A DNA stretch of 32,000 nt from Gemmatimonadales bacterium (GTDB lineage: Bacteria; Gemmatimonadota; Gemmatimonadetes; Gemmatimonadales; GWC2-71-9), in the NCBI GenBank assembly GCA_035706765.1, contig DASSUS010000017.1, positions 25,698 through 57,697 on the forward strand, read 5' to 3'. A program made the translations under genes and the position numbers. Below the pieces are notes generated by a model. That model was not told where the DNA came from. It saw only the letters and a list, made by a program, of their open reading frames with translations, and did not search any database. The first letter of the stretch is position 1; every line of letters starts with the position of its first letter. Positions 259-22,170 of the stretch are shown here, in pieces.

Positions 259-922
259 TGCGGCGCAGCTTCAGCCGCGACATCAGCTCCGCGGTGTTTT
301 CGTCCTGAAGCCCGGTCTCGGTACTGAGTGTGTCGATGTGGAGGTCGCCGACCTGCGCCAGCTCGCCGATCGTGCGCTCGAACGCGCGGCGGAACCCGGC
401 GGAAAAGCCGAAGATTTCGGCATCCGACATCGTCTTCACCATGTGCGGCTTGTCGCGTGTGCGGATGCGATTGGCGAGCGTGATGTCGGTCGCGTCGATG
501 AAGACGACGAGGTCGAGCATCGAGGCCCACTGGTCGATCACGCGCGCGCGCCAGCCGGCGGGCACACGATCGCCGTTGCGGTTGAAGAAGACGTCGAGCC
601 AGCTGAGCGCGAACACCGGCCCTTCGTCGAGCAGGATGACGCGGTGGCGCTGCGCTTCTTCCTCCACCACCTGGCGCAGCGCGCCGAGCCGCACCATTTG
701 CGCGATCTCGGCGGCCTTGAGGGGCGCGCGCTCCATCGTCGCGCCGAGTATCGTGGGCAACAGCGCCATCGCGCTGCGCATCAGCCGGCGCCTGGGCAGT
801 CCCCAGAGCGAAAGCCCGGACTTGATCGAGGCGTCGGCGTCGCTCGCGCCGCGTGCGAGCGTGGTTTTTCCGGCGCCGGCCGGTCCCACCAGCTCGACGA
901 TCACTGCGCGATTCCGGCTCAC
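248..922 (-). CDS. Small P-loop NTPase, kinase-like, family unknown
   Basis: This is the last 224 codons of track ORF 248..1597. GTG at 922 forms a GTGA overlap with the stop (919-921) of the upstream gene. It has Walker A VELVGPAGAGKTT, an acidic strand VILLDEGPVF, and VVFIDATD followed by the basic RIRTRDKPH. The upstream part of the track ORF is Arg/Ala-rich and overlaps the real frame of 919..2367. Confidence 0.7.
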   Translation of the reverse strand: MSRNRAVIVELVGPAGAGKTTLARGASDADASIKSGLSLWGLPRRRLMRSAMALLPTILGATMERAPLKAAEIAQMVRLGALRQVVEEEAQRHRVILLDEGPVFALSWLDVFFNRNGDRVPAGWRARVIDQWASMLDLVVFIDATDITLANRIRTRDKPHMVKTMSDAEIFGFSAGFRRAFERTIGELAQVGDLHIDTLSTETGLQDENTAELMSRLKLRRNGH

Positions 923-2367
923 AGCGTGCTCCAGAGCTCCGATTTGAGCTTCGCGACGACCTGCGGCAGCGGTTGGGCGGCGTCGATGATCCGCGCGCCG
1001 CTCCTGGTCCAATCGGTTTCGGCGGTCTTGCGGGCCCGCTCGCGGACGTAGTCGGCCGGCTCGGACGGCTTGCGGCTGACGGCGGTCTCGGGATCGAGGC
1101 GCAGCAGGAACAGCACATCGGGCGCGCTCATCCGCTCGTAGTAGCGTCGCTCCCACGCCCGCAGCCTGTTCGCGAACGGGGACTGCGCGTCGAGCGCGCG
1201 GCCCTGGAACTCGCTCGGCCCGGCGAGCGCCCACCCTTCGGGCAGGGGATAGCGCTCGCAGATCGCGATGCCGCCGCCGGCGGCAAAGCGGCGCGCGCGC
1301 CGGTAGAGGGCGTAGCGGTCGCGCGCGGTGCAGGCCATCCGCAGCAGCTCGCCGTGCGTGATGACGCGTGAGGAGGCCTGCGCGCGGCGCAGGATTTTCA
1401 GCACTCCGCCGACGACGAGCGTGGCGAGGCTGCGCGTGGGGCGGCCCAGGTGCACGTGCGTAGTGGCGAGCGAGGATTCGAGCCATGCCTCGAGCGCGTC
1501 GGCACAGGTCGATTTCCCGGAACCGTCGCCGCCGAGCAGCGCCACGACCGACCCTCCGCTCGCGAGTCGCTGACCCGTGGGACGGACGCGCCGCCACAGT
1601 CGTTCGGCGATTCCAAACACCGGCGGGCGCCAGGCGTGCGCCGAGAGTGCCTGCGCCAGCAGCGCGCGCGCGGCCAGGCGACGGCGCGGCAGCGCGCCCG
1701 GCTGCAGCGCATCGCGGCAGCGCGAAAACAGCGAGACGCTGACCTCGGGCAAGTGCCGGCGCAGCGCCGCGACGACGACGTCAGGTGAGACCTGCTCTTC
1801 GAGCCGGTCGATTTCGTTCAGGGCACCGATCAGCCACGCCGGAGTCCGGCGCCTGAGCGAGTCGCGCACCATGTGCCGCAGCGACAGACGCACGACGGCG
1901 ACGATCAGCTCGAGCTCGGGCGCGGCGGTCTTGAAGATCGCTCCGCTGCCGCCGCGATGCTGCGCGGACTCGAGCATCGCCTTCTCGAGCGGGAGGCGGT
2001 AATGGGTTCGCCAGGGCAGGCCCACCACGAGCCGCTGATAGACGTGGAGGTGAATCAACAGTCCGGTGCGCTCGTCGAGCCCGAAGAAATGCACGATCCC
2101 CGCGGCCTCTCGGCCGGCCGGTGGCAGCGCCAGCTTGAATCCCAGCCCGTTCACGACGTCCACAAAGTCCGCGTACGACGCGCTGTCGACCAGCAAATCG
2201 ATATCGCCGCGGCCGCTCTCCCAGCGCTCGCGCTTGCCGTGACCCTTCCACTGGCAATACGAGACGCCGCGATTCGCGAGCGTGGACCCGAGTCGCGAGA
2301 CGAGCGGGGCAGGGGAAACCGAACCGCTGCGCGGCGGAGCGGCGGTGGGGAGCAGGCTCAATGACAT
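919..2367 (-). CDS. Fusion protein: N-terminal pol-beta-type nucleotidyltransferase-like domain plus C-terminal thymidylate-kinase-like P-loop kinase domain
   Basis: 482-aa ORF. The N-terminal half has [20 protein letters not shown] (GxG ... DxD) then LLIHLHVY, resembling the uncharacterised NTP_transf_5-type family. The C-terminal half has Walker [16 protein letters not shown] (DRY-like) and [15 protein letters not shown], the layout of dTMP-kinase-like kinases. ATG 2367 overlaps the upstream stop by 10 nt. Confidence 0.75.
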
Positions 2368-3548
2368 GTTCCCGACCCCGTGTCGCTGAACGAGGCGCCG
2401 GCAACGGGGACGAACACCCAGTCGTAGCTGTCGATCTTCAGGGTCAGCTTCAGCACGCCGAACGCAGAGCCGCGCACTTCGCTGTTCGGGTGCACCGCAA
2501 CCGTGGGCAGGCTGGTCCCTTCTCCGCCACCGGTACCGACGATGAACTCGCGGATCCCCTTGGCGTCATCGACGGCGCCGCTCGGCGTCATGGGCTTCAG
2601 CCGCTCGTAATGGTGTGGCTGGGCGTTGAGGACGATCTCCACTCCCGCCGCGTACAGCGCGTCCCACAACGTCTTGCGCTCGCTGTTCGAAATGCCGCCC
2701 GCGGAATTGGACGATTGCCACATCGGCACGTGCCACATGGCGATGGTGCATTTCCGGCTGTTCGCGGCCAGGTCATCGACGAGCCACTGACGCTGTTCCG
2801 AGCCAGGACCGAATTGCACGAACGGCAGGTTGTCGTTGAGAACGATCACGTGCCATTGGCCGACGTCGTAGCTGTACCATCCTTTGCCCCGTTCGCCGAC
2901 CGCGCCCCCGAAGTAGTCGAACGCGCCATCGGCATTGCCCATGTTGTACTCATGGTTGCCGAGGGTGGGATGCGTCCGCGCCTTGAATTGCCCCCAGCTC
3001 GGCGAGTAGCAGTCGTCGTAGTCGGTGTCGGTGCCGTTGGGAAACGCGTTGTCGCCGAGCGTGAAGACGACGGCGTCCGGCTCGGCGGCGATCAGCGCCG
3101 CGGTGCGGTTGTCATTCGAAGAGCTGCAGTCGCCGATGTTACCGGCACCCATGAACACGACACTCGAGGCGGACGGCCGCGCCACCTCGGCGGTGGTCGC
3201 CGCGGGTGGGCTCTTCGCCCCGCGCGCGTCGGTCACCGTCAGCGCGACGTTGTAGTCACCGTCCTGCGCGTAGGTGTGCGAAGGCTTCATGTCGGTCGAG
3301 CTCGCGCCATCGCCGAACGTCCAGCTGAACGTCAAGGCATCGCCGTCCGGATCTGATGAGGCGCTGCCGTCGAAGTTCACCGTGCCCGTGGACGAGCTAT
3401 ACGGGCCACCCACGACGGCCACCGGCGGGCTGTTGGGCGGCGGCGGTGGCGGCGACACCGGCGGTGGGGGAGGCGGTGGATTGACCGTCTCACGGCATGC
3501 GACACCCAGAGCGATGAGCAGGAACACGAATGCTGGACGCGACGTCAC
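2358..3548 (-). CDS. Secreted (lipobox-like Cys) PKD-domain purple-acid-phosphatase-like metallophosphoesterase with partly substituted metal-ligand motifs (paralogue 1)
   Basis: GTG 3548 forms GTGA with the stop of the upstream paralogue and has GGGAGA 5 nt upstream; the track start TTG 3566 is the alternative. Signal peptide [18 protein letters not shown] is followed by a Pro tract and a PKD signature ([24 protein letters not shown]...[14 protein letters not shown]). The motifs read GNIG, GDNAF, GNHE, WHVP and AQPHH. The tail is [15 protein letters not shown]...DTGSGTCH. Confidence 0.85.
3423..3479 (-). repeat. Proline-codon (CCN) low-complexity tract, G-rich on the plus strand
   Basis: Encodes [19 protein letters not shown] immediately after the signal-peptide Cys of paralogue 1. 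Confidence 0.9.
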
Positions 3549-4723
3549 TGCGGTCTCCCGTGACAAGTGCCAGAGCCGGAATCGGTGAATGTGCCGCCGG
3601 CCGAGCGGATGAAACGCCAGTCATAGCCGGCGTTTTTGAGCGTGAGTTTCAGAACGCCCCAGGTGTCGTTGTTGCGCACTTCACTGTTCGAGCCCTCGGG
3701 AATCGGCCCGAACGCGTACAGTCCTTCGCCGCCGCCCGTGCCCACGACGATCTGAGGGATGCCGAAAGCGTTATCGAGCGTGCCGTCGGGCTTCTGGGGC
3801 GCGAAGCGTTGATACGAGTGATCGTGACCGTTGAGCACGAGATCCACGCCGTACTCGTACAGCGCATTCCAGATCGCCGTCACTTCGGGGCGGATCGGAG
3901 CGCGGTCCTTGATTGTTGAGAACCGCGGATGGTGCCACACGGCGAGCGTGCATTGCTCGGTGTGCGCGGCGAGCTCGGCGCGGATCCATTGCTCCTGCGG
4001 CGAGCCGGCTTCGTAATTCACGGGGCGGTCGGTGCCGGTATTGATCACCAGCACGAACCAGCTCCCGGCCGTGAAGCTGTAATAGCCTTTCGTGGGGTCG
4101 CCGGCGGCGGCGCCGAAATAGCCGTAGTAGCCGGCCGCACCCGAGGTGTTGTAGTCGTGATTTCCGGCGACGGGGCGTGTGCGGTACTTCTGCCGGCCCC
4201 ACGCCGGGTCGTAGCAGTTCGCGTACTCCTCGGGCGTGCCGTCGAGATAGGCGTTGTCGCCGAGCGGCATGACGATGCCCGGGATGGTATCGAGCGTCTG
4301 GCCCGTGGCGTCGTCGGAAGTCCGAAGGCAGTCGCCGATGTCGCCCGCGGCGAGGATGACGGGATCGCCGGTCGTGAGGTTGAGCGATGCCGAGCCGTTG
4401 GCGTCGCGCGCGTTCGTCACGCTGACGTCGACGCGGTAGTTCCCGTTGTTCGTGTAGGTGTGCGTCGCGGGAAGCGCGCCCTGCGTGCCGACCGATCCGG
4501 TGGAGCTGTTGCCGTCGCCCCAGTTGATCGAGTAGCTCCAGGGGCCCTGGTTGCTCGAGTCGCTGAACGTCACCGGGAGGGCGAACGTCGCGGCGAGCGG
4601 AACCGAGGGGAGCGTGCCGAGCGTGACATGGAGGTTGCCGCGGGGCTCGTTGGGGCCGCCGCAGGTCACGGTGACCACCAATAGAAAAACTCCGCACATG
4701 CGGACAAGGGTGCGTGCGATCAT
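3545..4723 (-). CDS. Secreted PKD-like-domain purple-acid-phosphatase-type metallophosphoesterase with all catalytic motifs intact (paralogue 2)
   Basis: ATG 4723 forms an ATGA overlap with the stop of the upstream mini-lipoprotein; the 60 upstream codons of track ORF 3545..4903 are rejected. Signal peptide [21 protein letters not shown] is followed by INWGDG...[15 protein letters not shown]. All five PAP motifs are present ([25 protein letters not shown]). The tail is [15 protein letters not shown]...DSGSGTCH. Confidence 0.88.
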
Positions 4724-4959
4724 AGTGATGCGATGGGGCCGGACTGCCAGGGGTAGTCGTGATTGTCGCTCGTGTCCTTCGGCGTCTTTTGCGGACCGGC
4801 CTTGGGAGCGGGAGCGGGTTCTTCGGGTGGCACCGTCTGCGGTTGGACCGCGGGTGAAGGTGCCGCAACGGGACGCTCCGGCTGGCGCGATTCGCGGCCG
4901 CATCCGAGCAACAGCGCTTGCAGCGCTACTGCCAGCATACGACCGTCGAATCTCGCCAT
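4720..4959 (-). CDS. 79-aa proline-rich mini-lipoprotein
   Basis: ATG 4959 is preceded by AGGAGA with a 7-nt spacer. The signal peptide has a good lipobox (MLAVALQALLLGC). The mature part is Pro/Glu/Lys-rich (PERPVAAPSPAVQPQTVPPEEPAPAPKAGPQKTPK). The stop overlaps the next start as ATGA (4720-4723). Confidence 0.65.
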   Translation of the reverse strand: MARFDGRMLAVALQALLLGCGRESRQPERPVAAPSPAVQPQTVPPEEPAPAPKAGPQKTPKDTSDNHDYPWQSGPIASL

Positions 4960-4983
4960 CGGAGCGTCTCCTATGCCGCGTGC

Positions 4984-6303
4984 TTAGTGGCAGGTCGCCG
5001 AACCAGAATCGGTCGGGCCACCGGGAGTCGCGTTGACGAACTCCCAGTCGTAGCTGTTGTCCTTCATCGTGAGCTTCAACACACCCCAGCTGTCGACGAT
5101 CTGCGCTTCACGCAGCGCTGGAGTGGCAGGGCCGCCGGGGTTGTCGAACGACCGGCCGCCGGTTCCGACGATGAACTGACGGAAGCCCGTCGGGTCGGGG
5201 CTCGCGGAACGAACGTCGGCGGGTGCAAACCGGGCGTACAGCTTGTCCTTCGCGCTGATCAGCAGATCGACACCGTACTGCTTCATGGTGCCGGCCATGC
5301 GAACCATGTTGAAGTTCTTGCCTTGCTCACCCAGGCTCGTGGTGTAGAAGCGCCGCTCCCACGAAATCACGGCGATGCACGGCTTCGTGTTCGCCGCGAG
5401 ATCTGTCGCAAGCCATTCAGCCTGTTCGGAAGGAACCTGAATTTCCTGTACGCCCGGTGTCGCGGGATCGCCGTCGGTCACGCCGAACGTCGTCGCCGCG
5501 CCATGCTCCCAATCGGACGTGTTCAGGAAGACGATGTGCCAGCTGCCCTTGTCGAACGAGAACCACCCCTTGTGAGCCGGGCCGGTCCGATCGCCGAGGT
5601 AGCCATATACACCATCAGGTCCGCGGTCGCTGCCGAAGTCACCGGTCCCAATCGCATACCAGGTCCGCGACCGGAACGCATCCCACCCCTTGCCCACGAA
5701 GCAGCTCTGGAACGTGGTTCCCGCGGTCATGTCGGCCAGATTGTTGCCGACAGTGAACGCGATCGCGCTCGTGTCGTTTTTCAGGATGTTATCGACCAGT
5801 GCCGCAGTGGCCTTCGGGCCAGCATCGCTGTTGCACGTCGAGATCTCGCCGGCGCCCACCATCGTGAATCCAGGAACTGTGGTCACACCCGTCGTCGTCG
5901 CCGTCGCGGTCGCGAACGCCGAGCTGGTCGTCGCGTCGAATGCCGAGACGCGATAGGTGTACTGCGTCGACGCCGCGAGCCCGACCGAGTCGACATACGT
6001 CGCGGCGTTCGCGGCCAGGTTCGCGCCGATCTGCGCGAACGTCGTGCACCCGGCGCCGCTGCACCGCTCGACCTTGTAGCCGGTCTCGGTGGTCGCGTTG
6101 TCGGTCCACGCCAGATCGACCCGCGTCTGCGACATCGGCGTCGCGGTCAATCCCGTCGGCGCGGCCAGCGTCGGCGGCGGCGGCGGTGGGGGCGGGGGTG
6201 GGTTGGTCACGGTGTCTTCTTTACAGGCGCCGAAGGCGCCGATCGTGCCGGCGGCGGCGAGCACCAGCGCGGCTCGAACCATGGAGCGGTTAGTGAACCT
6301 CAT
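4984..6303 (-). CDS. Secreted FN3-domain purple-acid-phosphatase-like protein with all metal-ligand motifs degenerate (paralogue 3, predicted pseudoenzyme)
   Basis: ATG 6303 is preceded by AAGGAGAG with a 7-nt spacer. Signal peptide MRFTNRSMVRAALVLAAAGTIGAFGAC is followed by 10 Pro and an FN3-like segment (PTGLTATPMSQTRVDLAWTDNATTETGYKVER...YTYRVSAF). The phosphoesterase core aligns to paralogues 1 and 2 but reads GEIS, GNNLA, GTGD, SWER and AKDK. The tail is VLKLTMKDNSYDWEF...DSGSATCH. Confidence 0.85.
   Translation of the reverse strand: MRFTNRSMVRAALVLAAAGTIGAFGACKEDTVTNPPPPPPPPPPTLAAPTGLTATPMSQTRVDLAWTDNATTETGYKVERCSGAGCTTFAQIGANLAANAATYVDSVGLAASTQYTYRVSAFDATTSSAFATATATTTGVTTVPGFTMVGAGEISTCNSDAGPKATAALVDNILKNDTSAIAFTVGNNLADMTAGTTFQSCFVGKGWDAFRSRTWYAIGTGDFGSDRGPDGVYGYLGDRTGPAHKGWFSFDKGSWHIVFLNTSDWEHGAATTFGVTDGDPATPGVQEIQVPSEQAEWLATDLAANTKPCIAVISWERRFYTTSLGEQGKNFNMVRMAGTMKQYGVDLLISAKDKLYARFAPADVRSASPDPTGFRQFIVGTGGRSFDNPGGPATPALREAQIVDSWGVLKLTMKDNSYDWEFVNATPGGPTDSGSATCH
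6172..6201 (-). repeat. Run of 10 proline codons, G-rich on the plus strand
   Basis: CCA CCC CCG CCC CCA CCG CCG CCG CCG CCG, read on the minus strand directly after CKEDTVTN of paralogue 3. Confidence 0.9.
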
Positions 6304-6372: not shown

Positions 6373-6396
6373 CCGTGCCGCCGGCAGTCGGCACGG
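6373..6396 (-). other. GC-rich stem-loop (8-bp perfect stem, 8-nt loop) in the intergenic gap; possible internal terminator or RNA processing/stability element
   Basis: CCGTGCCG (6373-6380) and CGGCACGG (6389-6396) are exact reverse complements. One further pair is possible after a mismatch. No U tract follows on the minus-strand transcript. Confidence 0.3.
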
Positions 6397-6418: not shown

Positions 6419-6496
6419 TCAGTCGCACGAGAGCACCGCGAGTACGGCGCCGAGAATCACGAGGGCGCGCAGCAACAGCATCATGGCAGGTCTCAC
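6419..6496 (-). CDS. Candidate 25-codon hydrophobic micro-ORF (signal-peptide-like, ends Cys-Asp)
   Basis: The sequence GTG AGA CCT GCC ATG ATG CTG ... TGC GAC TGA encodes (M)RPAMMLLLRALVILGAVLAVLSCD. AAGGAG (6502-6507, the last codons of the upstream gene) lies 5 nt upstream of the GTG. Alternative ATG starts are at 6484 and 6481. It is too short to judge by composition. Confidence 0.25.
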   Translation of the reverse strand: MRPAMMLLLRALVILGAVLAVLSCD

Positions 6497-6498
6497 AG

Positions 6499-8775
6499 TC
6501 ACTCCTTGGCGCTGCGAAGCGTCAGCGGCGGTTCCTTGGTGCGGCGGACAGTGTGCCCCAGTGTTTCGATCCCGCGGCGGAGCGTCGCGCCGATCAACGG
6601 CAACGGGTCGTCCCATGCGAAGCCGCTCTTGGCTTCGCACTGAATGACCCACGGGACCCATTGGGCAAAGGACATGCCTGACGCGCGCGCGGCGGAGAGG
6701 TCTTTCCACGGCTTGCACCAGCGGTAGCCGGCGCGCGCGGGCACCATCATGGGGCGTGGCGCCCCGATCAAATCGCCATAAACGAGTGCGGGGAGGTTCA
6801 CGCCTGCGACGGCGCCGAGGTGATGCCAAAGGTTGAAACGCGGATTCACCTCGAGCAGCCGCAGCCGTCCGTCGAGGTCGCGCTTGAAATCGAACTTCGC
6901 CACGCCGCGGAATTGCAGCCGTTTCACCAACGCCCGGCCAAGCGCCAACACGTCCTGCGCATCACTGGTCTCGAGGGCGGTGCTGTCGCCGTAAGCGGGC
7001 GGCAGGGTGCGAATTTTCTTTCCCGCGAACTCGCCGGCGATCGCGCCGCGCTCGTCCACGTAGGCGTGATAGCTCTCGATGCTCGTCTCGGCGCCGGGAA
7101 TCAGCTCCTGCGCGAGCAGCGCGAGATTCGCGGCCATGATGCGCGGCCATAGCTCACGCAGCTCGCGCATGGACTGCACCGAGATCGCCTTGCCCGCGCT
7201 CGCGATCGGTTCCCAGCGCGCCGGAATCCGCACCAGCGGTTTCAGAATCAACGGGAACGGGATCGGGAAATCGTCGCCCGGCTCCGGGTCGCCCGGGTTG
7301 ATCACCCGCGCGGCGGGCACCGGCAAATCGAGTTTGGCGGCGAGCGCCTGAAACCGGGATTTGTCCACGAGCTGCTCGACCAGCTCGGCGTCGGGCACGA
7401 CGAACCGGAACGCCTCGCGCAGCCGTTCCCGATGCCGCGACACCATCAGCAGCGTCCGGTCTTCCTGATAGAACAGGCACGGCGGCTCGGGCTGCGCCTG
7501 ACCGAAGCGGACCAGCGACTCGACCAGCGGCTCCTGGCTGTCCCACGCGTTATGCCACGGGAATACGGCGCGGGTGTGGCGCGAGTAGCGCACCGGCGCG
7601 CCCGGAGGCGCGAGCACCGTGGAGGGAATGCGCGCGCACCCGAGCGCGCGCACGAGGTCGATGTCGCCGAGCACCACGGCCGGGGGGCGGGTGGGGTGCG
7701 CGGGACGTCCCGCCCGCCCGATGAACCCGGTGGCCTGACGCGTGACGAGCGAGGCTCGGCCGCGCAGCGACTGCTGCCACCCGTAGACCCGTTTCGCGAC
7801 CCTGCGCGCCTTCATGAGCCACGGCCGGCGCCCGCGCAGCCAGCGCACTTTCCGCCGATCCGGCTCGGCGCCGAACTTGATCTTGAACTCGCCGCCGCCC
7901 ATGAAGTCGAACGTGGTGCAGCCGAGCTCGATCGCCCGCTGCATCACCGTCCAGGTCATGAGCTCGGTGGGGCGATACCAGCGGTAATGCTGGCGGTGCG
8001 CCCACATCCACAGCAGCAGCTCGGTCCCTTCGACGTAGAAGATCCCCGTGGCGATGTTCACGCGCCCGCCCGGGAGATAGACCGAGATCGCGATGAGGTT
8101 TCCGCTCTGCTTCAGCTTCCGGAAAAACTCGAGCACGCGCTGCTTCCCGAACGGGACCGCGAATCCGCCGCGCCGATAGACTTCCTTCAGCTGGGCGTAG
8201 TGCTCGTCGACGAAGCTCTCATCGTCCTCGAACTTCGTGATGAGCCCGAGCCGCTGCGCGCGCTTCACGTTGCGGCGCGCGCTCATCTTCAGCTGCTTGA
8301 AGGTGCGGGCCTCGTCGTTGGGGTAGAGCGGCGCGCGGAAGGTGAAGACCGGCTCGTCCTCGAAGCCGGCGGCGCGCATCCCCTCCGGATCGAGCCCGAG
8401 GTGCAGCATCTCGATGTGATCGACGTCGTGCTCGCGCTCGAGGTACGACACGACCGACGACGCGAACGCGCCGGTGTCGAACCGGGCGGGATCGTAGGCG
8501 GGACCGAGACTCACGGTCTGCCACCCGGCGAGCGGCGAGCCGAACAGCTTCCAGCGGCCGACGGTGACGAGCAGGCCGGGGAAGCACCCTACGATTCCGG
8601 TCTCGTCCTCGAGCAGCCGATAGAGCGGCTTGCCGCAATTGCAGCTCGCGAGGGTATCGATCCACGCACGCGTGTGCGGCAGGCGGTAGTTGGGAAAGCG
8701 CCGCACGATCGCGTCCCAATTCGCGAGCTCCGTCGCGCTCGCTTCGCGCACGCGCATCGTTGCTGAAGGAGTCAT
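6499..8775 (-). CDS. Fusion protein: N-terminal FemAB-like/GNAT-fold acyl(aminoacyl)transferase domain plus C-terminal ATP-grasp carboxylate-amine ligase domain
   Basis: 758-aa ORF. ATG 8775 has GAGGAC 5 nt upstream and a 1-nt overlap (TGATG) with the upstream stop. Residues ~1-340 show FemAB/CelD-like features (WMWAHRQHYRWYRPTELMTWTVMQRAIELGCTTFDFMGGGEFKIKFGAEP). A basic linker follows. Residues ~370-758 look like a COG3919-style ATP-grasp (DKSRFQALAAKLDLPVP, PLILKP, LAQELIPG, VAKFDFKRDLDGRLRLLEVNPRF). Confidence 0.8.
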   Translation of the reverse strand: MTPSATMRVREASATELANWDAIVRRFPNYRLPHTRAWIDTLASCNCGKPLYRLLEDETGIVGCFPGLLVTVGRWKLFGSPLAGWQTVSLGPAYDPARFDTGAFASSVVSYLEREHDVDHIEMLHLGLDPEGMRAAGFEDEPVFTFRAPLYPNDEARTFKQLKMSARRNVKRAQRLGLITKFEDDESFVDEHYAQLKEVYRRGGFAVPFGKQRVLEFFRKLKQSGNLIAISVYLPGGRVNIATGIFYVEGTELLLWMWAHRQHYRWYRPTELMTWTVMQRAIELGCTTFDFMGGGEFKIKFGAEPDRRKVRWLRGRRPWLMKARRVAKRVYGWQQSLRGRASLVTRQATGFIGRAGRPAHPTRPPAVVLGDIDLVRALGCARIPSTVLAPPGAPVRYSRHTRAVFPWHNAWDSQEPLVESLVRFGQAQPEPPCLFYQEDRTLLMVSRHRERLREAFRFVVPDAELVEQLVDKSRFQALAAKLDLPVPAARVINPGDPEPGDDFPIPFPLILKPLVRIPARWEPIASAGKAISVQSMRELRELWPRIMAANLALLAQELIPGAETSIESYHAYVDERGAIAGEFAGKKIRTLPPAYGDSTALETSDAQDVLALGRALVKRLQFRGVAKFDFKRDLDGRLRLLEVNPRFNLWHHLGAVAGVNLPALVYGDLIGAPRPMMVPARAGYRWCKPWKDLSAARASGMSFAQWVPWVIQCEAKSGFAWDDPLPLIGATLRRGIETLGHTVRRTKEPPLTLRSAKE

Positions 8776-9443
8776 CAGCAGTCCTCAGCGAGCAACCGGC
8801 GTGCCGCGGGCATCTCGGGAGGTTGCTTGAACTTTCGGCGGCCGAGCGCCACGGCGCCGATCGCCAGCGCGGTGCGCGCGATGATCGCGAAGTCCCGGCG
8901 CAGCGACGCGCGCCGGATGTAGACCCGATCGAGCGCGAGCTTCGTCTTGAGCAGCTTGTCGACGTAATGCGTCTCGGGATCGTCGGGGTGCAGCAGCGTC
9001 TCGGCCGATGTGAACTGGTACAGGCTCCCCGGGCTCGCGAGCCCGGGTCGCACGCCGAGCGTTTCGAGATCGGGGGACGAGTAATGCTCGCGCACGATCG
9101 CCGGGTCTTCGGGCCGGGGTCCCACGATCGCCATGTCGCCCCTGAGGACGTTGAAGAGCTGCGGCAGCTCGTCGATCTTCGTCTTGCGCAGGATCCTGCC
9201 GATCGTCGAGATCCGATCGTCCCGATGGCCCGTGATGCGCGGACCTCCGGAGCCTCCATCGACCTTCATCGTCCGCAGTTTCCACATCGTGAATTCGCGC
9301 CCGAGATAGCCGACGCGCCGCGCCCGGTAGAACACTGGACCGGGATCGGTCAGCTTGATGCCGAGTGCGGCGAGGCCGATGATGGGCGCGGTGAGGACGA
9401 GTGCCGCCCCCGCGCAGACGATGTCAAACAGGCGTTTCACCAT
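8775..9443 (-). CDS. Small monotopic phosphoglycosyltransferase (bacterial sugar transferase family, PglC/WbaP-C-terminal type); primes on undecaprenyl phosphate
   Basis: 222 aa. It starts MVKRLFDIVCAGAALVLTAPIIGLAAL (re-entrant helix) and carries PVFYRARRVG, WKLRTM and DELPQLFNVLRGDMAIVGPRP. Confidence 0.9.
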   Translation of the reverse strand: MVKRLFDIVCAGAALVLTAPIIGLAALGIKLTDPGPVFYRARRVGYLGREFTMWKLRTMKVDGGSGGPRITGHRDDRISTIGRILRKTKIDELPQLFNVLRGDMAIVGPRPEDPAIVREHYSSPDLETLGVRPGLASPGSLYQFTSAETLLHPDDPETHYVDKLLKTKLALDRVYIRRASLRRDFAIIARTALAIGAVALGRRKFKQPPEMPAARRLLAEDC

Positions 9444-10101
9444 GATGGAGAGTTCGGCGGACGGTCATGAAGACTTCCGCGGCCTCGAGGCACTGCTGGT
9501 TGCCCCAGGCCAGGGCCCGGTGGCGCAGCGCGTCGAGCGAGCGCGGATGGGGATAGGGACGGAGCTCGCTGGTGTAGCACGCCATCGCCGCGAGCTTGAT
9601 CTCGAGCGTGGCCGAGATGTCGACCCAGGTATCGGCGGTGAAGGTGCGGGGGTACGCCCACTCGGTGCTGCTCGCGGTGTCGAACGCGTACACGGCGCGG
9701 ACCCAGCAGGCGGTCGGCCGGGTCGCGACGAGCGCGGCCTGGAACAGCAAATGGTGATCGCGGTTGATGTCGCCGCCCCACTGGCAGTAGACGACGTGGG
9801 GTTGGACTTCCTTCACGATCGTATCCAGCGGATTGATGATCTCGGTGAGCGGCATCGTGTCGAGCCGCTGATCGGGAAAGCCGAGCGGGCGCACGTCGCG
9901 CACGCCGAGGGTTGCCGCGGCCTTGCGGATGTGCTCGGGTTGGCCGACGCCCTGCTGGCCATAGCGCAGCGACTCGCCCTCGCACACGATGATCGACGTC
10001 ACCTCGTCGCCGGCCCTGGTGTGCAGCGCGACCGTGCCGCCACACCCGAGCAATTCGTCGTCGGGATGCGCGGCAATGACGAGCACTCTGCGCTTACTCA
10101 T
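9424..10101 (-). CDS. PIG-L/LmbE family de-N-acetylase
   Basis: MSKRRVLVIAAHPDDELLGCGGT plus DINRDHH. ATG 10101 has GGAAGGGG 6 nt upstream and overlaps the upstream stop by 8 nt; the track start 10122 is less likely. Confidence 0.85.
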   Translation of the reverse strand: MSKRRVLVIAAHPDDELLGCGGTVALHTRAGDEVTSIIVCEGESLRYGQQGVGQPEHIRKAAATLGVRDVRPLGFPDQRLDTMPLTEIINPLDTIVKEVQPHVVYCQWGGDINRDHHLLFQAALVATRPTACWVRAVYAFDTASSTEWAYPRTFTADTWVDISATLEIKLAAMACYTSELRPYPHPRSLDALRHRALAWGNQQCLEAAEVFMTVRRTLHHGETPV

Positions 10102-11059
10102 GGCATTCCCCTTCCTGCCCATTCCAGCGCTTGCCGGTCCACGGCTGCTCGCTGAGCGCCTGGCCGCGCAGCCGCGTACCGGCTTCGTCTTCCACTTCGA
10201 GCAGCACGACGGCGCCGCTGCCGCACGCCACGAGCTGACCGCAGGCCGACTGCGCCGGACTCACCACCGGTCCCAGCACTTCGCCGGGCTCGCCCACCGG
10301 GCCGCGGTCGGGGGGCAGCGCCGCTTCCCAGATCCACCACTGTTTGCCGTCGAGGGAGCTGAAGGCGCCGGGGTAGGGACGCGTGAGCGCGCGGACGAAG
10401 TCGTAGACCATCCGGGCGGGGCAGGTCCAGGTGATGCGTCCGTCGGCGGGGCGGCGCCGGCGCAGCACCGGCTCGTCGCTGCGTTGCTGCGGGCGGCCGG
10501 GACGCTCGCCCGCGAGCAGCTTCGGCAGCAGCTCGAGCAGCATCTCGCGGTTCGTGGCGGCCACCTGCGCGTACAACGTGGCGCAGGTGTCGTAGGGCCC
10601 GACGGGGAACGAGCGCTGCGCGATGATGTCGCCTTCGTCCACGCCTTCGGCGAGCCACATCAGCGTGTTGCCGCTCTCGCGCTCGCCGCGGATGATGGTC
10701 CAGTTGATCGGCGCGGAGCCGCGATTGTGCGGGAGCAGCGACGCGTGCGCGCCGATCAAGCCCAGCCGCGCCAGCTTCATGACCGGCGGCCGCGCGATCT
10801 GATGCCAGCCGATCACGAAGATCACGTCGGGCGCGAGGTCCGCGAGGATCTGCATCGCCTCGGGCTCGTTGATCCCCGCGATGTAGTGCAGCGGAATCCC
10901 GTACTGGCTGCACACCGGCGCGTAGTCCACGCCGCCGGAGCGCTTGGCGGCGAGCTCGGGCTTCAGCGTCAGCACGGCCGCGATCGGCGCACCGGCGGCA
11001 AGCAACGCCTGCAACGCCGCCAGTCCCTCGGCATGAAACCCGACCCACGCGAATTTCAC
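10094..11059 (-). CDS. Formyltransferase of the FMT/ArnA-N-terminal type; by context a sugar N-formyltransferase
   Basis: GTG 11059 forms GTGA with the upstream stop. It has HASLLPHNRGSAPINW (the HxSLLPxxRG motif), a catalytic-Asp region MWLAEGVDEGDII, and an FMT-like C-terminal domain. It sits next to the DegT aminotransferase. Confidence 0.8.
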   Translation of the reverse strand: MKFAWVGFHAEGLAALQALLAAGAPIAAVLTLKPELAAKRSGGVDYAPVCSQYGIPLHYIAGINEPEAMQILADLAPDVIFVIGWHQIARPPVMKLARLGLIGAHASLLPHNRGSAPINWTIIRGERESGNTLMWLAEGVDEGDIIAQRSFPVGPYDTCATLYAQVAATNREMLLELLPKLLAGERPGRPQQRSDEPVLRRRRPADGRITWTCPARMVYDFVRALTRPYPGAFSSLDGKQWWIWEAALPPDRGPVGEPGEVLGPVVSPAQSACGQLVACGSGAVVLLEVEDEAGTRLRGQALSEQPWTGKRWNGQEGECHE

Positions 11060-12240
11060 CGGCGGTAGGTCTGGACCACGTCCAGCACCGCCTCGATGAC
11101 GTCACCGACATCCTGATCGGTGAGTCCGGGGTGCAACGGAAGACTCAGCATCCGCTCGAAGTTCGTGAACGCCACCGGGTAGTCGCTCGCGATGTACCCG
11201 TATTTCTTCCGGTAAAAGGGGTGGACGTGAATCGGGATGAAATGCACCGACGTCCCGATGTTGCGCTTCGTGAGCTCGTCGATGAACTGATCGCGGCCGA
11301 TGCGCAGCAGCTGGGGACGGATGCGCAGGACGAAGAGGTGCCACGCGTGCTCGACGTACGGGCGCTGCACCGGGGGCTCGAGCGCTTCTTCGGCGCCGAA
11401 CGCCTCCAGGTACGCCTTTACGATCTGCAGGCGCCGCTGATGGAACCGCTCCTGCTTGCGCAGCTGCCACAGTCCGATCGCGGACGCTACGTCGGTGAGG
11501 TTGTACTTGAAGCCCGGGGCCACCACTTCGTAGCGCCAGCTGCCGCCCTGGTCGTAGCGCTTCCAGGCGTCCCGGCTCATCCCGTGCAGCGCCATGATGC
11601 GGGCGCGCTCCAGGAATTCCGGCGGGGCCGTGAGCATTCCGCCTTCTGCCGTCGTGAGGTTCTTGGTGGCGTAGAAGCTGAAGGCCACCGGATTCGGGCT
11701 GGACCCGATCGGCCGGCCGCGGAAGCTCGCGGGCAGCGCGTGCGCCGCGTCTTCGATCAGCGTGAGATTGTGCGCCCGCGCGAGCTCGTCGAGCGCGTCC
11801 CGCTCCACCGGATGGCCGGTGTAATGGACCGGGAGCAAGGCCCGCGTGCGCGGCGTAATCGCCGCTTCGACCTTTTTCGGATCGATGTTCAAGGTGTCCG
11901 GCTCGACGTCGACCAGTACCGGGCGCGCGCCGACGTGCTCGATCACATTCGCCGTCGCCGTGAACGTCATCGGCGTCGTAATGACCTCATCGCCGTGCTC
12001 GAGGTCGAGGCACGCCAGCGCGACGTGCATCGCCGCCGTACACGAGTTCAGCGCCAGCGCTCCTGGAGCGCGCACGAAGGCCGTGAACTCCTCTTCGAAG
12101 CGGCGCGTCTTGGGACCCGTCGTGATCCAGGGTGAGCGAAGCGTGTCCACTACTTCGCGGATCTCTTCCTCTTCCACGAGCGGGGGATTGAACGGCAGGA
12201 AGTCGCGGCGCGTGCTGACGCGCGAGATCGTGTCGGTCAT
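11056..12240 (-). CDS. DegT/DnrJ/EryC1/StrS-family PLP-dependent sugar aminotransferase (PglE/ArnB/WbpE-like)
   Basis: 394 aa with SPWITTGPKTRRFEEEF and the PLP-lysine region FSFYATKNLTTAEGG. ATG 12240 forms ATGA with the upstream stop. Confidence 0.9.
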   Translation of the reverse strand: MTDTISRVSTRRDFLPFNPPLVEEEEIREVVDTLRSPWITTGPKTRRFEEEFTAFVRAPGALALNSCTAAMHVALACLDLEHGDEVITTPMTFTATANVIEHVGARPVLVDVEPDTLNIDPKKVEAAITPRTRALLPVHYTGHPVERDALDELARAHNLTLIEDAAHALPASFRGRPIGSSPNPVAFSFYATKNLTTAEGGMLTAPPEFLERARIMALHGMSRDAWKRYDQGGSWRYEVVAPGFKYNLTDVASAIGLWQLRKQERFHQRRLQIVKAYLEAFGAEEALEPPVQRPYVEHAWHLFVLRIRPQLLRIGRDQFIDELTKRNIGTSVHFIPIHVHPFYRKKYGYIASDYPVAFTNFERMLSLPLHPGLTDQDVGDVIEAVLDVVQTYRR

Positions 12241-14408
12241 TGTACGGTGCCTCCGCCCGCGACGGCCCCATCGGGCGGGATCGTGGGCGTGTTGGGAGCG
12301 AGCAGGGGATCGGGCGCGAGCGTCGGGGCCGGAGTCGGCGCCGGAGGGGTCAGGTCGTTCATCAGCCCGGCGCGCGAGCGGCTGAGCCGCCGGCGCGAGG
12401 CCCCGTTGCCGTTGGTGTGGCGAGCGCGGTGGTTCACCCCGTTGCCGTTCTTGCGCGCGCCATTGCCGGAGTGTGCCACCAGCTCGAGCCGCTCCGGCTG
12501 GTATTCGGTGACGATGGCGGAGAGTGCACGCACCATCGAGCGCTCATCGCCCTGGCCGGTGACGGAGATCAGCGAGCGCAGCTGCCGCGCCAGGGTGGCG
12601 CCGCCCGCTCCATTGCCCGCGACGACGCGGATCTTCTCGATCGACGTCTGCGCGAGCGTTTCGTTCGGCGCGACGAGCTCCTCTTCCAGCTTTTCGCCCG
12701 GCCTGAGGCCGGTGAACACGATCTGGACGTCGTGGTAGGGCACGAGCCCCGACAGGCGGATCAGCTGCTCGGCGAGCTCCAGGATGCGCACCTGCGTTCC
12801 CATCTCGAGTACCGCGATCCGGCCCGCCGCTTCCGGCAGCGCGGCCGCCTCGAGCACGAGCTGCGCGGCCTCCGGAATCGTCATCAGGAAGCGCTTCATC
12901 TCGGGATGCGTGACGGTGACCGGGCCGCCGGCCGCGATCTGTTTCTTGAACAGCGGAACGACGCTGCCGTCCGAGCCGAGCACGTTCCCGAACCGCACCA
13001 CGCGGAAATCGGTGTTCGAGGCGCGCAGCGACGGCAGCTCGCGGACGATGTGCTCCGCGACGCGCTTCGTCGCGCCGAGAATGCTCGACGGATTGACGGC
13101 CTTGTCGGTGGAGATCAGGACGAACTTCCGCGTACCGACGCGCGCCGCCGACTGCGCCAGCCGCAGCGTGCCGACGACGTTGTTCCAGACGCCCTCGATC
13201 ATGTTCCACTCGAGCATCGGCACGTGCTTGTAGGCGGCGGCGTGAAACACGCAGTCGGGCCGATAGGTCTCGAACATCCGGTCGAGCCGGGCGGCGTTCG
13301 TGACGCTCGCGAGGACCGGGACGACGTCGATCGCCGGATGCGCCTCGGAGATCTCGTGACAAATGAAGAACAGCGGGCTCTCCGCGCGGTCGAGCAGCAG
13401 CAGGCGCCGCGGGTGGAACCGCGCGATCTGCCGCACGAGCTCGGAGCCGATCGATCCGCCGGCGCCGGTCACGAGGATCACCTTGCCCGCGAGCTCGGGC
13501 GCGACGTCCTTGAGCTCGAGCTGCACGGGGTCGCGCCCCAGCAGGTCCTCGACCTGGACGTCGCGCACGTGATTGATCTGCGGCTCGTCCGGGGAGAGCA
13601 GGTCGACCTGGGGCGGCAGGATCTTGACCGCGACGCCGGTCTCGGCCGCGCGGGCCACGAGCTTGCGCACCTGTTCGGGGGTGGCCGACGGTGTGGCGAT
13701 CACGATCTGCTGCGCCTGGTGCATGGCGACGAAGCGCCGCAGCTCTTCCGAGCCGCCCAGCACGGAGACGCCGTGCAGCGTGCGGCCATGCTTCGCGACA
13801 TCGTCGTCGACGATGCCGACGACGTTCAGCGGGTGCCGCGGATCATGCTGGAGCTGGCGCAGCAGGCGCTCGCCGGCGACGCCGGCGCCGATGATGATCG
13901 CGGGGCGCCCGCGGCGCCGCTGCCGGCGCGCGAACGGCTCTTCGCGGATCCAGCGCAGCAAGCCGCGTTGATCGCGGCTCGGTCGGCGGAACGGCTCTTC
14001 CTTGATCCAGCGCGCCAGAAACCGAATCCCACCCGCCAGCATGATGAGAATGAACCAGTCCAGGATCGGGACGCCGGCCGGCATCGTGCCGACGCGGCCG
14101 AGGAACAGCAGCAGGCCGATGAACGCGAGCGAGCTGAGCGTCGTCGCGGCGATGAGCTGCCGCAGGTCGCGGACGCCGACGAGGTGCCAGTAACCGCGGA
14201 ACAGCCCGAAGCGATGGAACAGCGCGAGCCGCAGCACGAGGAGATAGGGAAGCGTTTCGGCGTAGGTGCGCAGCTGCTCGGGAGGGATCTGAAAATCGAA
14301 GCGCAACGCATACGCGGCGAAATAGGCGAACGAGACGAGCGCGAGATGTCCGGCAACCGAGACATAGCGCCGATAGGGACGCAGACGTGACAAGGCTTCC
14401 ATCAGCAT
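12237..14408 (-). CDS. Membrane-anchored CapD/PglF/WbpM-type nucleotide-sugar 4,6-dehydratase with an unusual ~78-aa low-complexity C-terminal tail
   Basis: The start is placed at ATG 14408 (MLMEALSRLRPYRRY...). The 19 upstream codons of the track ORF have poor GC3. There are four N-terminal hydrophobic helices and two Rossmann segments (IIIGAGVAGERL; VLVTGAGGSIGSEL). AAAYKHVPMLE and STDKAVNPSSILGATKRVAE are present. Confidence 0.88.
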   Translation of the reverse strand: MLMEALSRLRPYRRYVSVAGHLALVSFAYFAAYALRFDFQIPPEQLRTYAETLPYLLVLRLALFHRFGLFRGYWHLVGVRDLRQLIAATTLSSLAFIGLLLFLGRVGTMPAGVPILDWFILIMLAGGIRFLARWIKEEPFRRPSRDQRGLLRWIREEPFARRQRRRGRPAIIIGAGVAGERLLRQLQHDPRHPLNVVGIVDDDVAKHGRTLHGVSVLGGSEELRRFVAMHQAQQIVIATPSATPEQVRKLVARAAETGVAVKILPPQVDLLSPDEPQINHVRDVQVEDLLGRDPVQLELKDVAPELAGKVILVTGAGGSIGSELVRQIARFHPRRLLLLDRAESPLFFICHEISEAHPAIDVVPVLASVTNAARLDRMFETYRPDCVFHAAAYKHVPMLEWNMIEGVWNNVVGTLRLAQSAARVGTRKFVLISTDKAVNPSSILGATKRVAEHIVRELPSLRASNTDFRVVRFGNVLGSDGSVVPLFKKQIAAGGPVTVTHPEMKRFLMTIPEAAQLVLEAAALPEAAGRIAVLEMGTQVRILELAEQLIRLSGLVPYHDVQIVFTGLRPGEKLEEELVAPNETLAQTSIEKIRVVAGNGAGGATLARQLRSLISVTGQGDERSMVRALSAIVTEYQPERLELVAHSGNGARKNGNGVNHRARHTNGNGASRRRLSRSRAGLMNDLTPPAPTPAPTLAPDPLLAPNTPTIPPDGAVAGGGTVQ
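13933..14014 (-). repeat. In-frame 57-nt-period direct repeat inside the dehydratase gene
   Basis: gaacggctcttcgcggatccagcgc (13933-13957) and gaacggctcttccttgatccagcgc (13990-14014) match at 22 of 25 positions. They encode RWIREEPF and RWIKEEPF in the linker after the TM region. Confidence 0.8.
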
Positions 14409-14663
14409 GGACAAGACGACTCCGCATTGGGCTGTGCCGCCCCGTAATGCACCTTCCATGCTCAACGCGGTCGTGCTTGTGCCCGGCGCCGAACGCCTCA
14501 GGACTCAGCGCGGCGCGCCCGGCAGTTGCTACCGAACAGGGCGCAAGGCCGTGAGCGCTGTGGGGTTAACTGCGTGACGGCGCACGGCACCGAGCTTGCG
14601 TGGCGGAGCTAGACGTCTAGGCGTCGGAACGTCTAGCAGTTCTTGCCCAAGGAGCCACGCGCG
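14409..14663. promoter_or_regulatory. Divergent intergenic control region between the two polysaccharide operons
   Basis: This is the largest non-coding gap in the window and is flanked by outward-facing gene starts (14408 minus, 14664 plus). I could not assign confident -35/-10 hexamers. Confidence 0.6.
14609..14636. promoter_or_regulatory. Candidate operator: 12-bp perfect palindrome CTAGACGTCTAG plus a repeated half-site ACGTCTAG 16 bp downstream
   Basis: CTAGACGTCTAG (14609-14620) is its own reverse complement. ACGTCTAG recurs at 14629-14636. That puts three CTAG tetramers in 28 bp of GC-rich DNA, 28-55 nt upstream of the ATG at 14664. Confidence 0.4.
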
Positions 14664-22163: not shown

Positions 22164-22170
22164 CCGTGGT

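Follow-up and report, generated by a model that had tools for sequence, protein, structure and literature searches.

A FemABX-like tandem-GNAT domain fused to an ATP-grasp ligase in an amino-sugar operon of Gemmatimonadales: a candidate bifunctional amide-bond-forming enzyme of polysaccharide biosynthesis

In a 32,000-nucleotide stretch of a Gemmatimonadales genome (GenBank assembly GCA_035706765.1, contig DASSUS010000017.1, positions 25,698 to 57,697; the whole stretch is hereafter called the window), we analyzed a gene for a single polypeptide that joins an N-terminal FemABX-type tandem-GNAT domain to a C-terminal ATP-grasp carboxylate-amine ligase domain. Enzymes of both kinds make amide bonds: ATP-grasp ligases activate the acyl group as an acyl-phosphate, and Fem-type enzymes use an ester, classically an aminoacyl-transfer RNA (tRNA). 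Six translationally coupled minus-strand genes make up the operon, with the fusion gene at its end; the other five encode a PglF/CapD-type dehydratase, a PglE-type sugar aminotransferase, an ArnA-like N-formyltransferase, a PIG-L-family de-N-acetylase and a small PglC-type phosphoglycosyl transferase (Table 1). We propose, at a probability of roughly 0.55, that the fusion protein is a cytoplasmic bifunctional amide-bond-forming enzyme of a Wzx/Wzy-type surface-polysaccharide system and that it N-acylates a bacillosamine-type priming sugar. The fusion architecture and the operon are uncharacterised; already known are the chemistries of the parts and the idea that bacillosamine-type sugars can be decorated with N-acyl groups. 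An initial annotation of this DNA, made from the sequence alone, knew of no characterised enzyme with such a fusion, and our literature search likewise found no paper describing it or giving it a function. Fused, split and reverse-ordered versions of the domain pair define a large family that extends across Gemmatimonadota, Acidobacteriota and Alphaproteobacteria.

The plus-strand reading of 6499-8775 is full of stop codons and was ruled out; the segments FDFMGGGEFKIKFGAEP and RRKVRWLRGRRPWLMKARRVAKR correspond to residues 288-304 and 307-329, respectively, of the 758-residue protein translated from the minus strand. The Pfam searches proposed with the initial annotation were run and gave three families above their gathering scores, namely Acetyltransf_6 (PF13480; residues 165-296, E = 9.5e-15, 55.4 bits against 22), FemAB (PF02388; residues 238-293, a match of only 56 residues, 28.5 bits against 24) and ATPgrasp_Ter (PF15632; residues 554-684, 33.2 bits against 29.1). 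Several NCBIfam ATP-grasp models further cover residues 418-667. The family of PEP-CTERM-associated FemAB proteins that had also been suggested as a check, TIGR03019, aligns with residues 18-307 (E = 1.9e-16) at 60 bits, compared with an equivalog cutoff of 260, and the fusion protein is therefore not a member of it. A search of 5.8 billion proteins recovered 220 matches, the best 120 of which are all co-linear with the fusion protein, 53-88% identical to it and nearly all 740-790 residues long. About nine in ten of these 120 have both Pfam domains in a precomputed table, and the remainder either are fragments or lack a recorded ATP-grasp match while still spanning about 99% of the query. In the source databases they bear names such as 'GNAT family N-acetyltransferase [Gemmatimonadales]' or, at JGI, 'D-aspartate ligase' and 'ATP-grasp carboligase / CelD-BcsL acetyltransferase'; the D-aspartate ligase (Aslfm) name carried by several of them is a JGI source annotation only. 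An alignment of 52 fused homologues has a mean column identity of 62%, with both halves of the protein strongly conserved.

The existence of split, adjacent versions of both domains in other lineages would fit the view that the long open reading frame (ORF) is an assembly or frameshift artefact joining two genes, a danger which the initial annotation had itself pointed out. This view is effectively refuted, since the two-domain protein is encoded without interruption, at 740-790 residues and near-100% coverage, in over 100 independent sequences from metagenomes and genomes, and since both domains lie in one uninterrupted ORF in 25 of 80 species-representative genome loci that we surveyed, all 25 being from Gemmatimonadota. 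The junction between the domains (residues 304-365) is also conserved, and all but about ten of its residues are confidently modelled. An AlphaFold2 model of the full-length protein has a mean predicted local distance difference test score (pLDDT) of 88 and a predicted template modelling score (pTM) of 0.63, values that suggest two well-folded domains of uncertain mutual orientation. The early description of the protein as a genuine fusion of a FemAB-like and an ATP-grasp domain is thus borne out by profiles, structure prediction and fold search alike.

When residues 1-360 were modelled alone, AlphaFold2 returned a pLDDT of 91 and a pTM of 0.87. A Foldseek search of the PDB with this domain gave, at ranks 1-11 and with template modelling (TM) scores of 0.60-0.77, Sbb17, Sba18, FemX of Weissella viridescens and the Staphylococcus aureus FemA and FmhB, every one of them an aminoacyl-tRNA-dependent transferase. 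The top three matches are entries of Sbb17 and Sba18 (TMt 0.77), two of the three being bound to the amino sugar streptothrisamine. A profile built from 26 diverse N-domains, among them some of stand-alone and of alphaproteobacterial proteins, and compared with the PDB recovered Sba18 (2.4e-5), Sbb17 (1.7e-4), FemX (0.02-0.07), FmhB (0.025) and FemA (0.1); all matches at E <= 0.1 are of the Fem type, and the sole other match, the tenth, is a pilin at the chance level of E = 1. On the strength of the predicted fold and of the profile, the N-terminal domain is assigned to the FemABX-type superfamily, and the unrelated fold that the initial annotation had allowed for did not appear.

Within this domain, F297-K298 is a candidate equivalent of the catalytic Phe-Lys pair of Fem-type enzymes, exemplified by Lys305 of FemX and by Phe328-Lys329 of DhpH-C (PMC12945691). 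F297 and K298 are invariant in 52 of 52 fused homologues, and K298 is invariant across the 26 diverse N-domain sequences. The pair sits just past a DxxG motif that aligns with FemX, at which both the PDB profile and the fragment alignments with FemX stop, short of the lysine; judged by motif position, K298 is likely to be the equivalent of Lys305. The Q/R-x-x-G-x-G/A pyrophosphate-binding motif is absent from the beta4-alpha3 loop of the second GNAT lobe (residues 260-267, HRQHYRWY). The sole match to this motif, RRGGFA at residues 201-206, lies elsewhere and aligns with an R-x-G segment of FemX.

The initial annotation had taken the region after the transferase domain for a very basic linker. 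In fact it is a conserved beta-strand followed by a long helix, 36 residues in the AlphaFold2 models, and because this element is also present in stand-alone N-domain proteins it belongs to the Fem-like domain. Its net charge lies between +4 and +13 in all 52 homologues, and that of the stand-alone N-domains is likewise positive. Two of its residues, R324 and G339, do not vary, and K309, R311, W312, R316, Q334, Q335 and R338 hardly do. FemX has been proposed to hold the acceptor stem of the tRNA through a positively charged helix (PMC12945691), and the Arg-rich C-terminus of HfsK mediates membrane association and binding of cyclic di-GMP (PMC5362036). By analogy, the basic helix of the fusion protein might bind the tRNA acceptor stem as in FemX, or might have a membrane- or cyclic di-GMP-binding role as in HfsK. 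The true inter-domain linker is far shorter (Table 1), with pLDDT below 50 at residues 356-360, no predicted secondary structure and unconserved columns.

These features bear on the question of the donor. One could instead suppose that the tandem-GNAT domain uses acyl-coenzyme A (acyl-CoA) or some other non-tRNA donor, the ATP-grasp domain first ligating an amino acid to the sugar amine and the GNAT domain then N-acylating that amino acid. Such a scheme would mirror mycothiol synthesis, in which the deacetylase MshB, the ligase MshC and the tandem-GNAT acetyltransferase MshD cooperate, and the operon does resemble the mycothiol/bacillithiol logic of a deacetylase, an ATP-dependent amino-acid ligase and a tandem GNAT; moreover, the best NCBIfam matches of the PIG-L protein are bacillithiol and mycothiol deacetylases. 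PF13480 is itself annotated as a GNAT acetyltransferase, in line with the database names of the homologues, and the authors of the HfsK study emphasise that similarity to FemX does not allow the donor to be predicted (PMC5362036). Acyl-CoA-dependent tandem GNATs do occur among the fold matches, but only from rank 12, where 2wpw, VipF and histidine acetyltransferase are found along with MprF domains and where TM scores have dropped from about 0.7 to 0.35-0.55. With the leading fold and profile matches all dependent on aminoacyl-tRNA, the pyrophosphate-binding motif lacking from the expected loop, and a conserved Phe-Lys motif and a basic helix present, we consider an acyl-CoA donor unlikely.

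The C-terminal domain is assigned to the ATP-grasp superfamily, again by predicted fold and by profile. Its profile matched 2pn1 (7.6e-13) and DdlB (4.9e-12) in the PDB, followed by carbamoyl-phosphate synthetase, VanA and cyanophycin synthetase, and Foldseek recovered PurK, biotin carboxylases, the L-amino-acid ligases 3vot and RizA (4wd3), and 2pn1, with E-values of 1e-13 to 1e-14. K472, K512, Q556, K627, D629, E642, N644 and R646 are invariant in both a set of 52 fused and a set of 34 mixed homologues, and in an alignment with DdlB they fall on the phosphate and Mg motifs of that enzyme (R-x-D ... E-x-N). Invariance of this ATP/Mg set together with that of F297-K298 suggests that both domains are catalytically competent.

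The six genes of the operon overlap successively by 4, 4, 29, 20 and 1 nucleotides, and the TGA of the PglC gene and the ATG of the fusion gene share one base (cTGATGa), an overlap from which we conclude that the two are translationally coupled. The initial annotation had correctly placed the fusion gene beside a PglC-type transferase in an amino-sugar operon, although at a distance of 1 nucleotide downstream where there is actually a 1-base overlap, and it had missed the N-formyltransferase and the PIG-L de-N-acetylase, both of which shape the mechanism proposed here. No signal peptide, transmembrane or other hydrophobic segment was found in the fusion protein, which is accordingly placed in the cytoplasm, and neither a signal peptide nor a transmembrane segment was found in the PIG-L protein. 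The formyltransferase matches the ArnA formyltransferase domain (8e-47) ahead of Fmt (5e-29) in the PDB, and PRK06988 and ArnA in NCBIfam. An Fmt-like reading, in which it would formylate aminoacyl-tRNA, was set aside in view of a score of 163 bits for the ArnA domain versus 105, and is speculation only. A 337-residue ATG-initiated ORF at 10098-11111 (minus strand) was dismissed as spurious, as it matches no family and the overlapping frame is that of the formyltransferase. Upstream of the operon and divergent from it lie genes for a Wzc-like co-polymerase/tyrosine kinase and a Wza-like exporter; this pair is kept beside the operon in relatives, in which the operon itself runs on into genes for Wzx, Wzy, AsnB-like amidotransferases and glycosyltransferases.

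The cytoplasmic location, the coupling to PglC, the amino-sugar enzymes encoded upstream and the repeated pairing with de-N-acylases together point to N-acylation of an amine of the priming sugar or of its undecaprenyl-pyrophosphate-linked form. In the pathway that we envisage, the PglF-like dehydratase and the ArnB/PglE-like aminotransferase would convert uridine diphosphate (UDP)-GlcNAc to UDP-2-acetamido-4-amino-2,4,6-trideoxyhexose, a bacillosamine-type sugar, one amine of which would be capped by the ArnA-like formyltransferase. PglC would transfer the sugar-phosphate to undecaprenyl phosphate, and the PIG-L hydrolase, where present, would free an amine by de-N-acetylation or de-N-formylation. 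The fusion protein would then add a two-unit N-acyl substituent to the free amine in the cytoplasm, before flipping: its ATP-grasp domain would convert a free carboxylate, of an amino acid or a small acid, to an acyl-phosphate and join it to the amine, and its FemX-like domain would add an aminoacyl residue, most probably from aminoacyl-tRNA. The amino sugar would end up with a dipeptidyl or acyl-aminoacyl substituent, most economically on one nitrogen with a formamido group on the other. The aminoacyl or peptidyl decoration of the amino sugar or its lipid-linked intermediate suggested in the initial annotation is thus plausible.

Several points weigh against this proposal. We infer the glycan amine as acceptor, aminoacyl-tRNA as donor, the order of the steps and the choice of amine, and the chemistry of the product is likewise an inferred one; the equivalence of K298 with the FemX lysine is drawn from motif position and not from a superposition. 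The 4-amine is probably already occupied through the action of the formyltransferase, and since the PIG-L gene is absent from four of the 20 loci with this operon order (see below), an unmasked 2-amine is not the universal acceptor. No dedicated aminoacyl-tRNA synthetase paralogue is encoded in the window, and no tRNA gene or Rfam family was detected in it, nor any T-box or tRNA-like element beside the fusion gene. The alaS gene at 24005-26611 was considered as a dedicated tRNA-charging partner and rejected, being a member of an ordinary recA-recX-alaS group (22117-26611, plus strand). Finally, a related alphaproteobacterial gene cassette has no glycan-assembly genes around it, implying that the module is not intrinsically tied to polysaccharide loci.

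The survey of the 80 loci shows that the architecture, whose occurrence elsewhere the initial annotation had proposed to search for, is indeed found again and is a property not of one genome but of a large family. An exhaustive search of representatives gave 8300 matches at E < 1e-3 and 485 at E < 1e-30, including both domain orders and many stand-alone proteins. The order seen in the window, PglF-PglE-formyltransferase-(PIG-L)-PglC-fusion (type A), recurs at 20 species-level Gemmatimonadales loci, 16 of which have the PIG-L gene. A second kind of locus (type B), in some cases within the same genomes, holds a paralogue in the order glycosyltransferase family 2 (GT2), NodB-type deacetylase, fusion, AsnB, glycosyltransferase family 4 (GT4), AsnB, with the deacetylase gene overlapping the start of the fusion gene. 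The NodB-type deacetylase has no signal peptide or transmembrane segment and is not homologous to PIG-L; hence, two unrelated families of de-N-acylases have been recruited to a place directly upstream of this enzyme. Separate neighbouring genes encode the two domains in Pyrinomonadaceae (Acidobacteriota) and in some Gemmatimonadales, at 13 loci directly and at two more with an insert. Two loci (L041 and L042) encode a reverse-order ATP-grasp/Fem-like protein of 836 residues, an LPG_synthase_C-like protein and then a second ATP-grasp protein; in L041, which is acidobacterial, this larger assembly spans 8672-13396. LPG_synthase_C, the MprF-like family, is another aminoacyl-tRNA-dependent GNAT family. 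At a further Gemmatimonadales locus (L039, 7439-12314), ATP-grasp, GT4 and Fem-like domains share one ORF, and an ATP-grasp gene comes after it. The Fem-like and ATP-grasp domains thus behave as a Rosetta-stone pair, being fused N-C, fused C-N, split and adjacent, or accompanied by an interposed LPG-synthase-like aminoacyl-tRNA transferase and a second ATP-grasp.

In Alphaproteobacteria, 26 of the 80 loci encode a fusion of about 830 residues, the ATP-grasp domain of which is 55-59% identical to that of the window, together with a divergent PF13480 domain that has only about 18% identity yet matches the Pfam family at 3e-28. The ATP-grasp gene is directly followed by a metallophosphoesterase gene in at least 14 alphaproteobacterial loci. 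In cultured Alphaproteobacteria the cassette of GNAT (PF13480), ATP-grasp and metallophosphoesterase lies outside glycan loci; it is exemplified on the Azospirillum ramasamyi plasmid NZ_CP029830 at 189-192 kb (L087, 8014-11305), where no glycan-assembly genes lie nearby, and in Craurococcus roseus (L045, 9758-14512) a PIG-L gene stands beside it. Replicons of A. brasilense, A. lipoferum and A. oryzae encode ATP-grasp domains at 53-56% identity. The alphaproteobacterial homologues have genes for TctC, glyoxalase and UbiD among their neighbours, and those of Azospirillum have trehalose genes and one for a 5'-nucleotidase.

These homologues outside glycan loci would suit a role in the synthesis of a small peptide-like metabolite or in protein modification, the position in the polysaccharide operon being incidental; the neighbourhoods of ATP-grasp and GNAT-type peptide ligases in metabolite synthesis were reportedly surveyed by Iyer et al. 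in 2009. For the protein of the window we regard a role of this kind as very improbable: its start codon overlaps the PglC stop codon within a coupled operon of six genes, 20 species share the gene order, with protein identities of 53-88%, and the type-B paralogue, too, is set among such genes, with GT2/deacetylase on one side and AsnB/GT4 on the other.

A different assignment of the ATP-grasp step is suggested by Cj1438C, which amidates GlcA in the growing capsule, with the phosphatase Cj1435 acting afterwards (PMC11800379). By analogy, the ATP-grasp domain might activate a uronic acid of the glycan and amidate it with a small, possibly phosphorylated, amine that a phosphoesterase then trims, leaving the FemX-like domain to aminoacylate a remaining amine of that substituent. 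Metallophos genes do recur near the module, in that they lie downstream of the fusion gene in the window, are fused to PglC at two loci (L002 and L085) and directly follow the ATP-grasp gene in the alphaproteobacterial loci noted above, and the AsnB-like amidotransferases of the wider loci are typical of uronamide glycans. Against this, the Pfam scan gave PF15632 as the sole ATP-grasp family at E <= 0.01 and no match to the TupA-like one, to which Cj1438C belongs; a UDP-sugar dehydrogenase was found neither in the window nor within 10 kb on either side in the inspected relatives; and the immediate partners of the fusion gene encode amino-sugar enzymes and de-N-acylases. The Metallophos proteins of the window bear lipoprotein signal peptides and are thus extracytoplasmic, and by tblastn the exported PKD-Metallophos proteins of Gemmatimonadales are unrelated to the cytoplasmic alphaproteobacterial metallophosphoesterase, for which reason we discarded Metallophos as a universal partner of the module. 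Activation of a uronic acid therefore seems to us quite improbable.

The Fem-like domain is either fused to ATP-grasp, in one order or the other, or encoded next to it, and repeatedly lies beside de-N-acylases; this points to the building of amides or peptides on unmasked sugar amines. A bolder and, in our estimation, rather doubtful extension of N-acylation of the priming sugar is that Gemmatimonadota and, with split genes, Acidobacteriota build a peptide-bearing surface polysaccharide. ATP-grasp steps and aminoacyl-tRNA-dependent Fem-type steps would alternate to make a short peptide stem on an unmasked amino sugar. What the stem and cross-bridge are to peptidoglycan, these peptides would be to an exopolysaccharide, and the acidobacterial loci with a reverse-order ATP-grasp/Fem protein, an MprF-like transferase and a second ATP-grasp protein would be longer assembly lines. 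In a more radical variant the Fem-like domain would be independent of tRNA, taking an acyl-phosphate or a peptide from the ATP-grasp domain to which it is fused.

Table 1. Features of the fusion gene, its operon and the adjacent divergent genes (positions in the window; aa, amino acid residues)
Feature	Position	Strand	Basis or remarks
Fusion gene	6499..8775	-	758 aa; FemABX-like tandem-GNAT domain and ATP-grasp ligase domain; ATG start
N-terminal domain, aa 1-353	7717..8775	-	Tandem GNAT, FemABX type, as predicted by AlphaFold2 model, Foldseek and PDB profile
F297-K298	7882..7887	-	Candidate equivalent of catalytic Phe-Lys (FemX Lys305; DhpH-C Phe328-Lys329)
Basic beta-strand (aa 304-315) and long helix (aa 318-353)	7717..7866	-	Candidate tRNA acceptor-stem, membrane or cyclic di-GMP binding element
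True inter-domain linker, aa ~354-364	7684..7716	-	Low pLDDT, unconserved columns
C-terminal ATP-grasp carboxylate-amine ligase domain, aa 365-758 (394 residues)	6499..7683	-	PF15632, PDB profile, Foldseek
ATP-grasp catalytic core, K627-x-D629 ... E642-x-N644-x-R646 (Mg/phosphate site)	6838..6897	-	Conservation
PglC-type phosphoglycosyl transferase, small monotopic, 222 aa	8775..9443	-	Bac_transf 6.4e-51; N-terminal hydrophobic helix
PIG-L/LmbE-family de-N-acetylase, 232 aa, cytoplasmic	9424..10122	-	PF02585 2e-23; best NCBIfam match BshB1
ArnA-like sugar N-formyltransferase, 321 aa	10094..11059	-	Formyl_trans_N and Formyl_trans_C; GTG start
DegT/ArnB/PglE-type sugar 4-aminotransferase, 394 aa	11056..12240	-	PF01041 5.8e-115; best NCBIfam matches ArnB, PseC
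PglF/CapD-type membrane-associated UDP-GlcNAc 4,6-dehydratase	12237..14465	-	Polysacc_synt_2 5.8e-105; PseB/FnlA-like NCBIfam matches
Wzc-like co-polymerase/tyrosine kinase	14643-17069	+	Wzz, GNVR, AAA_31; divergent from the operon
Wza-like exporter	17066-17791	+	SLBB; divergent from the operon

Some further features of the window were noted. Simple scans around the ends of the operon found no promoter- or terminator-like sites. Three nucleotides past the stop codon of the fusion gene begins a 25-codon ORF (6419-6496, minus strand), (V/M)RPAMMLLLRALVILGAVLAVLSCD*, which resembles the signal peptide of a lipoprotein, with a lipobox (LSC) and just one residue after it; a near-identical peptide, MRPAMMLLLRALVILGAVLAVISC plus one to four residues, trails the fusion gene in four relatives (L004, L006, L007 and L017). 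A GC-rich hairpin without a U-tail, CCGTGCCG-actgccgg-CGGCACGG, lies at 6373-6396 (minus strand) between the fusion gene and that for an fn3 lipoprotein; the stretch is conserved in relatives, where it is seen as a 'VPAAGGTVS..TG.G.CL' pseudo-translation, and its possible roles are those of a U-less terminator and of a processing site. The exported fn3 and PKD-Metallophos lipoproteins are encoded downstream of the fusion gene at 2358-6303 (minus strand), and the two proteins in which Metallophos is fused to PglC (L002, 8355-10001; L085, 5730-10010, with PKD repeats) have 548 and 1426 residues, respectively. Also downstream of the operon are two P-loop proteins (919-2367 and 248-1597, minus strand) with weak Thymidylate_kin/AAA matches, which are retained in nearly all type-A loci, before Wzx and Wzy, and a homologue of which in L002 weakly matches NTP_transf_5. 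On the plus strand, a gene for the malto-oligosyltrehalose trehalohydrolase TreZ (17799-19667; 611 bits, above cutoff) comes right after the Wzc/Wza pair, and treZ-treY also lie about 4 kb from the Azospirillum cassette (L087, 1-3952); the proximity of TreZ in both places is probably a coincidence.

The family has implications beyond this operon. Fem-like (PF13480) proteins are common in exopolysaccharide loci, as with HfsK and the PEP-CTERM 'FemAB' proteins, and their donors and products have never been established; the fusion family offers a hypothesis for them that can be tested in vitro. If the proposal is right, Gemmatimonadota and Acidobacteriota, both abundant soil phyla, would make aminoacylated or peptidylated surface glycans that draw on charged tRNA. 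Cultured Azospirillum, with its related GNAT/ATP-grasp/phosphoesterase cassette, could be an experimental entry point.

The fusion protein can be compared with several known systems. It resembles FemABX proteins (FemX, FemA, FmhB) in its predicted tandem-GNAT fold (TM 0.60-0.76) and in a match to PF02388 above threshold, and it has a conserved aromatic-Lys motif and a basic helix that are candidate counterparts of theirs. It differs from them in having only 12-14% identity and an attached ATP-grasp domain, in belonging to a Gram-negative-type polysaccharide operon rather than to peptidoglycan synthesis, and in its acceptor, which is presumably a sugar amine where theirs is the Lys side chain of the stem peptide. 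Sba18 and Sbb17 (Orf11-type; PDB 9wqy, 9wqw and 9wqx), the best sequence-profile and fold matches of the N-terminal domain, transfer glycine from Gly-tRNA to an amino-sugar amine in the synthesis of streptothricin-type antibiotics (PMC12945691), the very chemistry proposed here; they are, however, stand-alone proteins of about 310 residues from Streptomyces secondary metabolism, without the long C-terminal helix or an ATP-grasp domain, and their identity is 18-20%. HfsK of Caulobacter crescentus, as described, is also an exopolysaccharide-linked, FemX-like tandem GNAT with an Arg-rich C-terminal element needed for membrane association; it is tied genetically to the holdfast exopolysaccharide pathway and is proposed to acylate amines exposed by the deacetylase HfsH (PMC5362036). 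In contrast to the fusion protein, it is a single-domain protein for which no ATP-grasp partner has been described. TIGR03019 gives the best NCBIfam alignment of the N-terminal domain and likewise represents a Fem-like protein of exopolysaccharide loci, but the window shows no exosortase or PEP-CTERM components.

On the ATP-grasp side, an architectural parallel is Neisseria PglB2, in which an ATP-grasp domain fused to the priming transferase makes glyceramido-bacillosamine (PMC11130364). In both cases an ATP-grasp domain is coupled to a PglC-type transferase within a dehydratase/aminotransferase pathway, here by genes overlapping by one nucleotide. In PglB2, however, it is the transferase itself that carries the ATP-grasp, in place of an acetyltransferase domain, whereas in the window it is fused to the Fem-like domain and the transferase is the next gene. 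Cj1438 of the Campylobacter jejuni capsule is similar in being a multidomain polysaccharide enzyme in which ATP-grasp forms an amide bond on a glycan, with a later phosphatase step, but its ATP-grasp domain is of the TupA-like family, activates the glycan's own uronic-acid carboxylate and is fused to a GT2 rather than a GNAT domain. Lastly, the L-Ara4N (Arn) pathway combines amination, formylation, transfer to undecaprenyl phosphate and de-N-acylation (ArnB, ArnA, ArnC and ArnD), and the operon has all four gene types, namely an aminotransferase, an N-formyltransferase, a lipid-phosphate transferase and a de-N-acylase. The aminotransferase and formyltransferase score below the NCBIfam equivalog cutoffs and are therefore analogues or paralogues rather than Arn enzymes, and the operon departs from the Arn pathway in its 6-deoxy-HexNAc sugar made through a PglF-type dehydratase, in its PglC-type lipid transfer and in a hydrolase of the PIG-L rather than the ArnD type.

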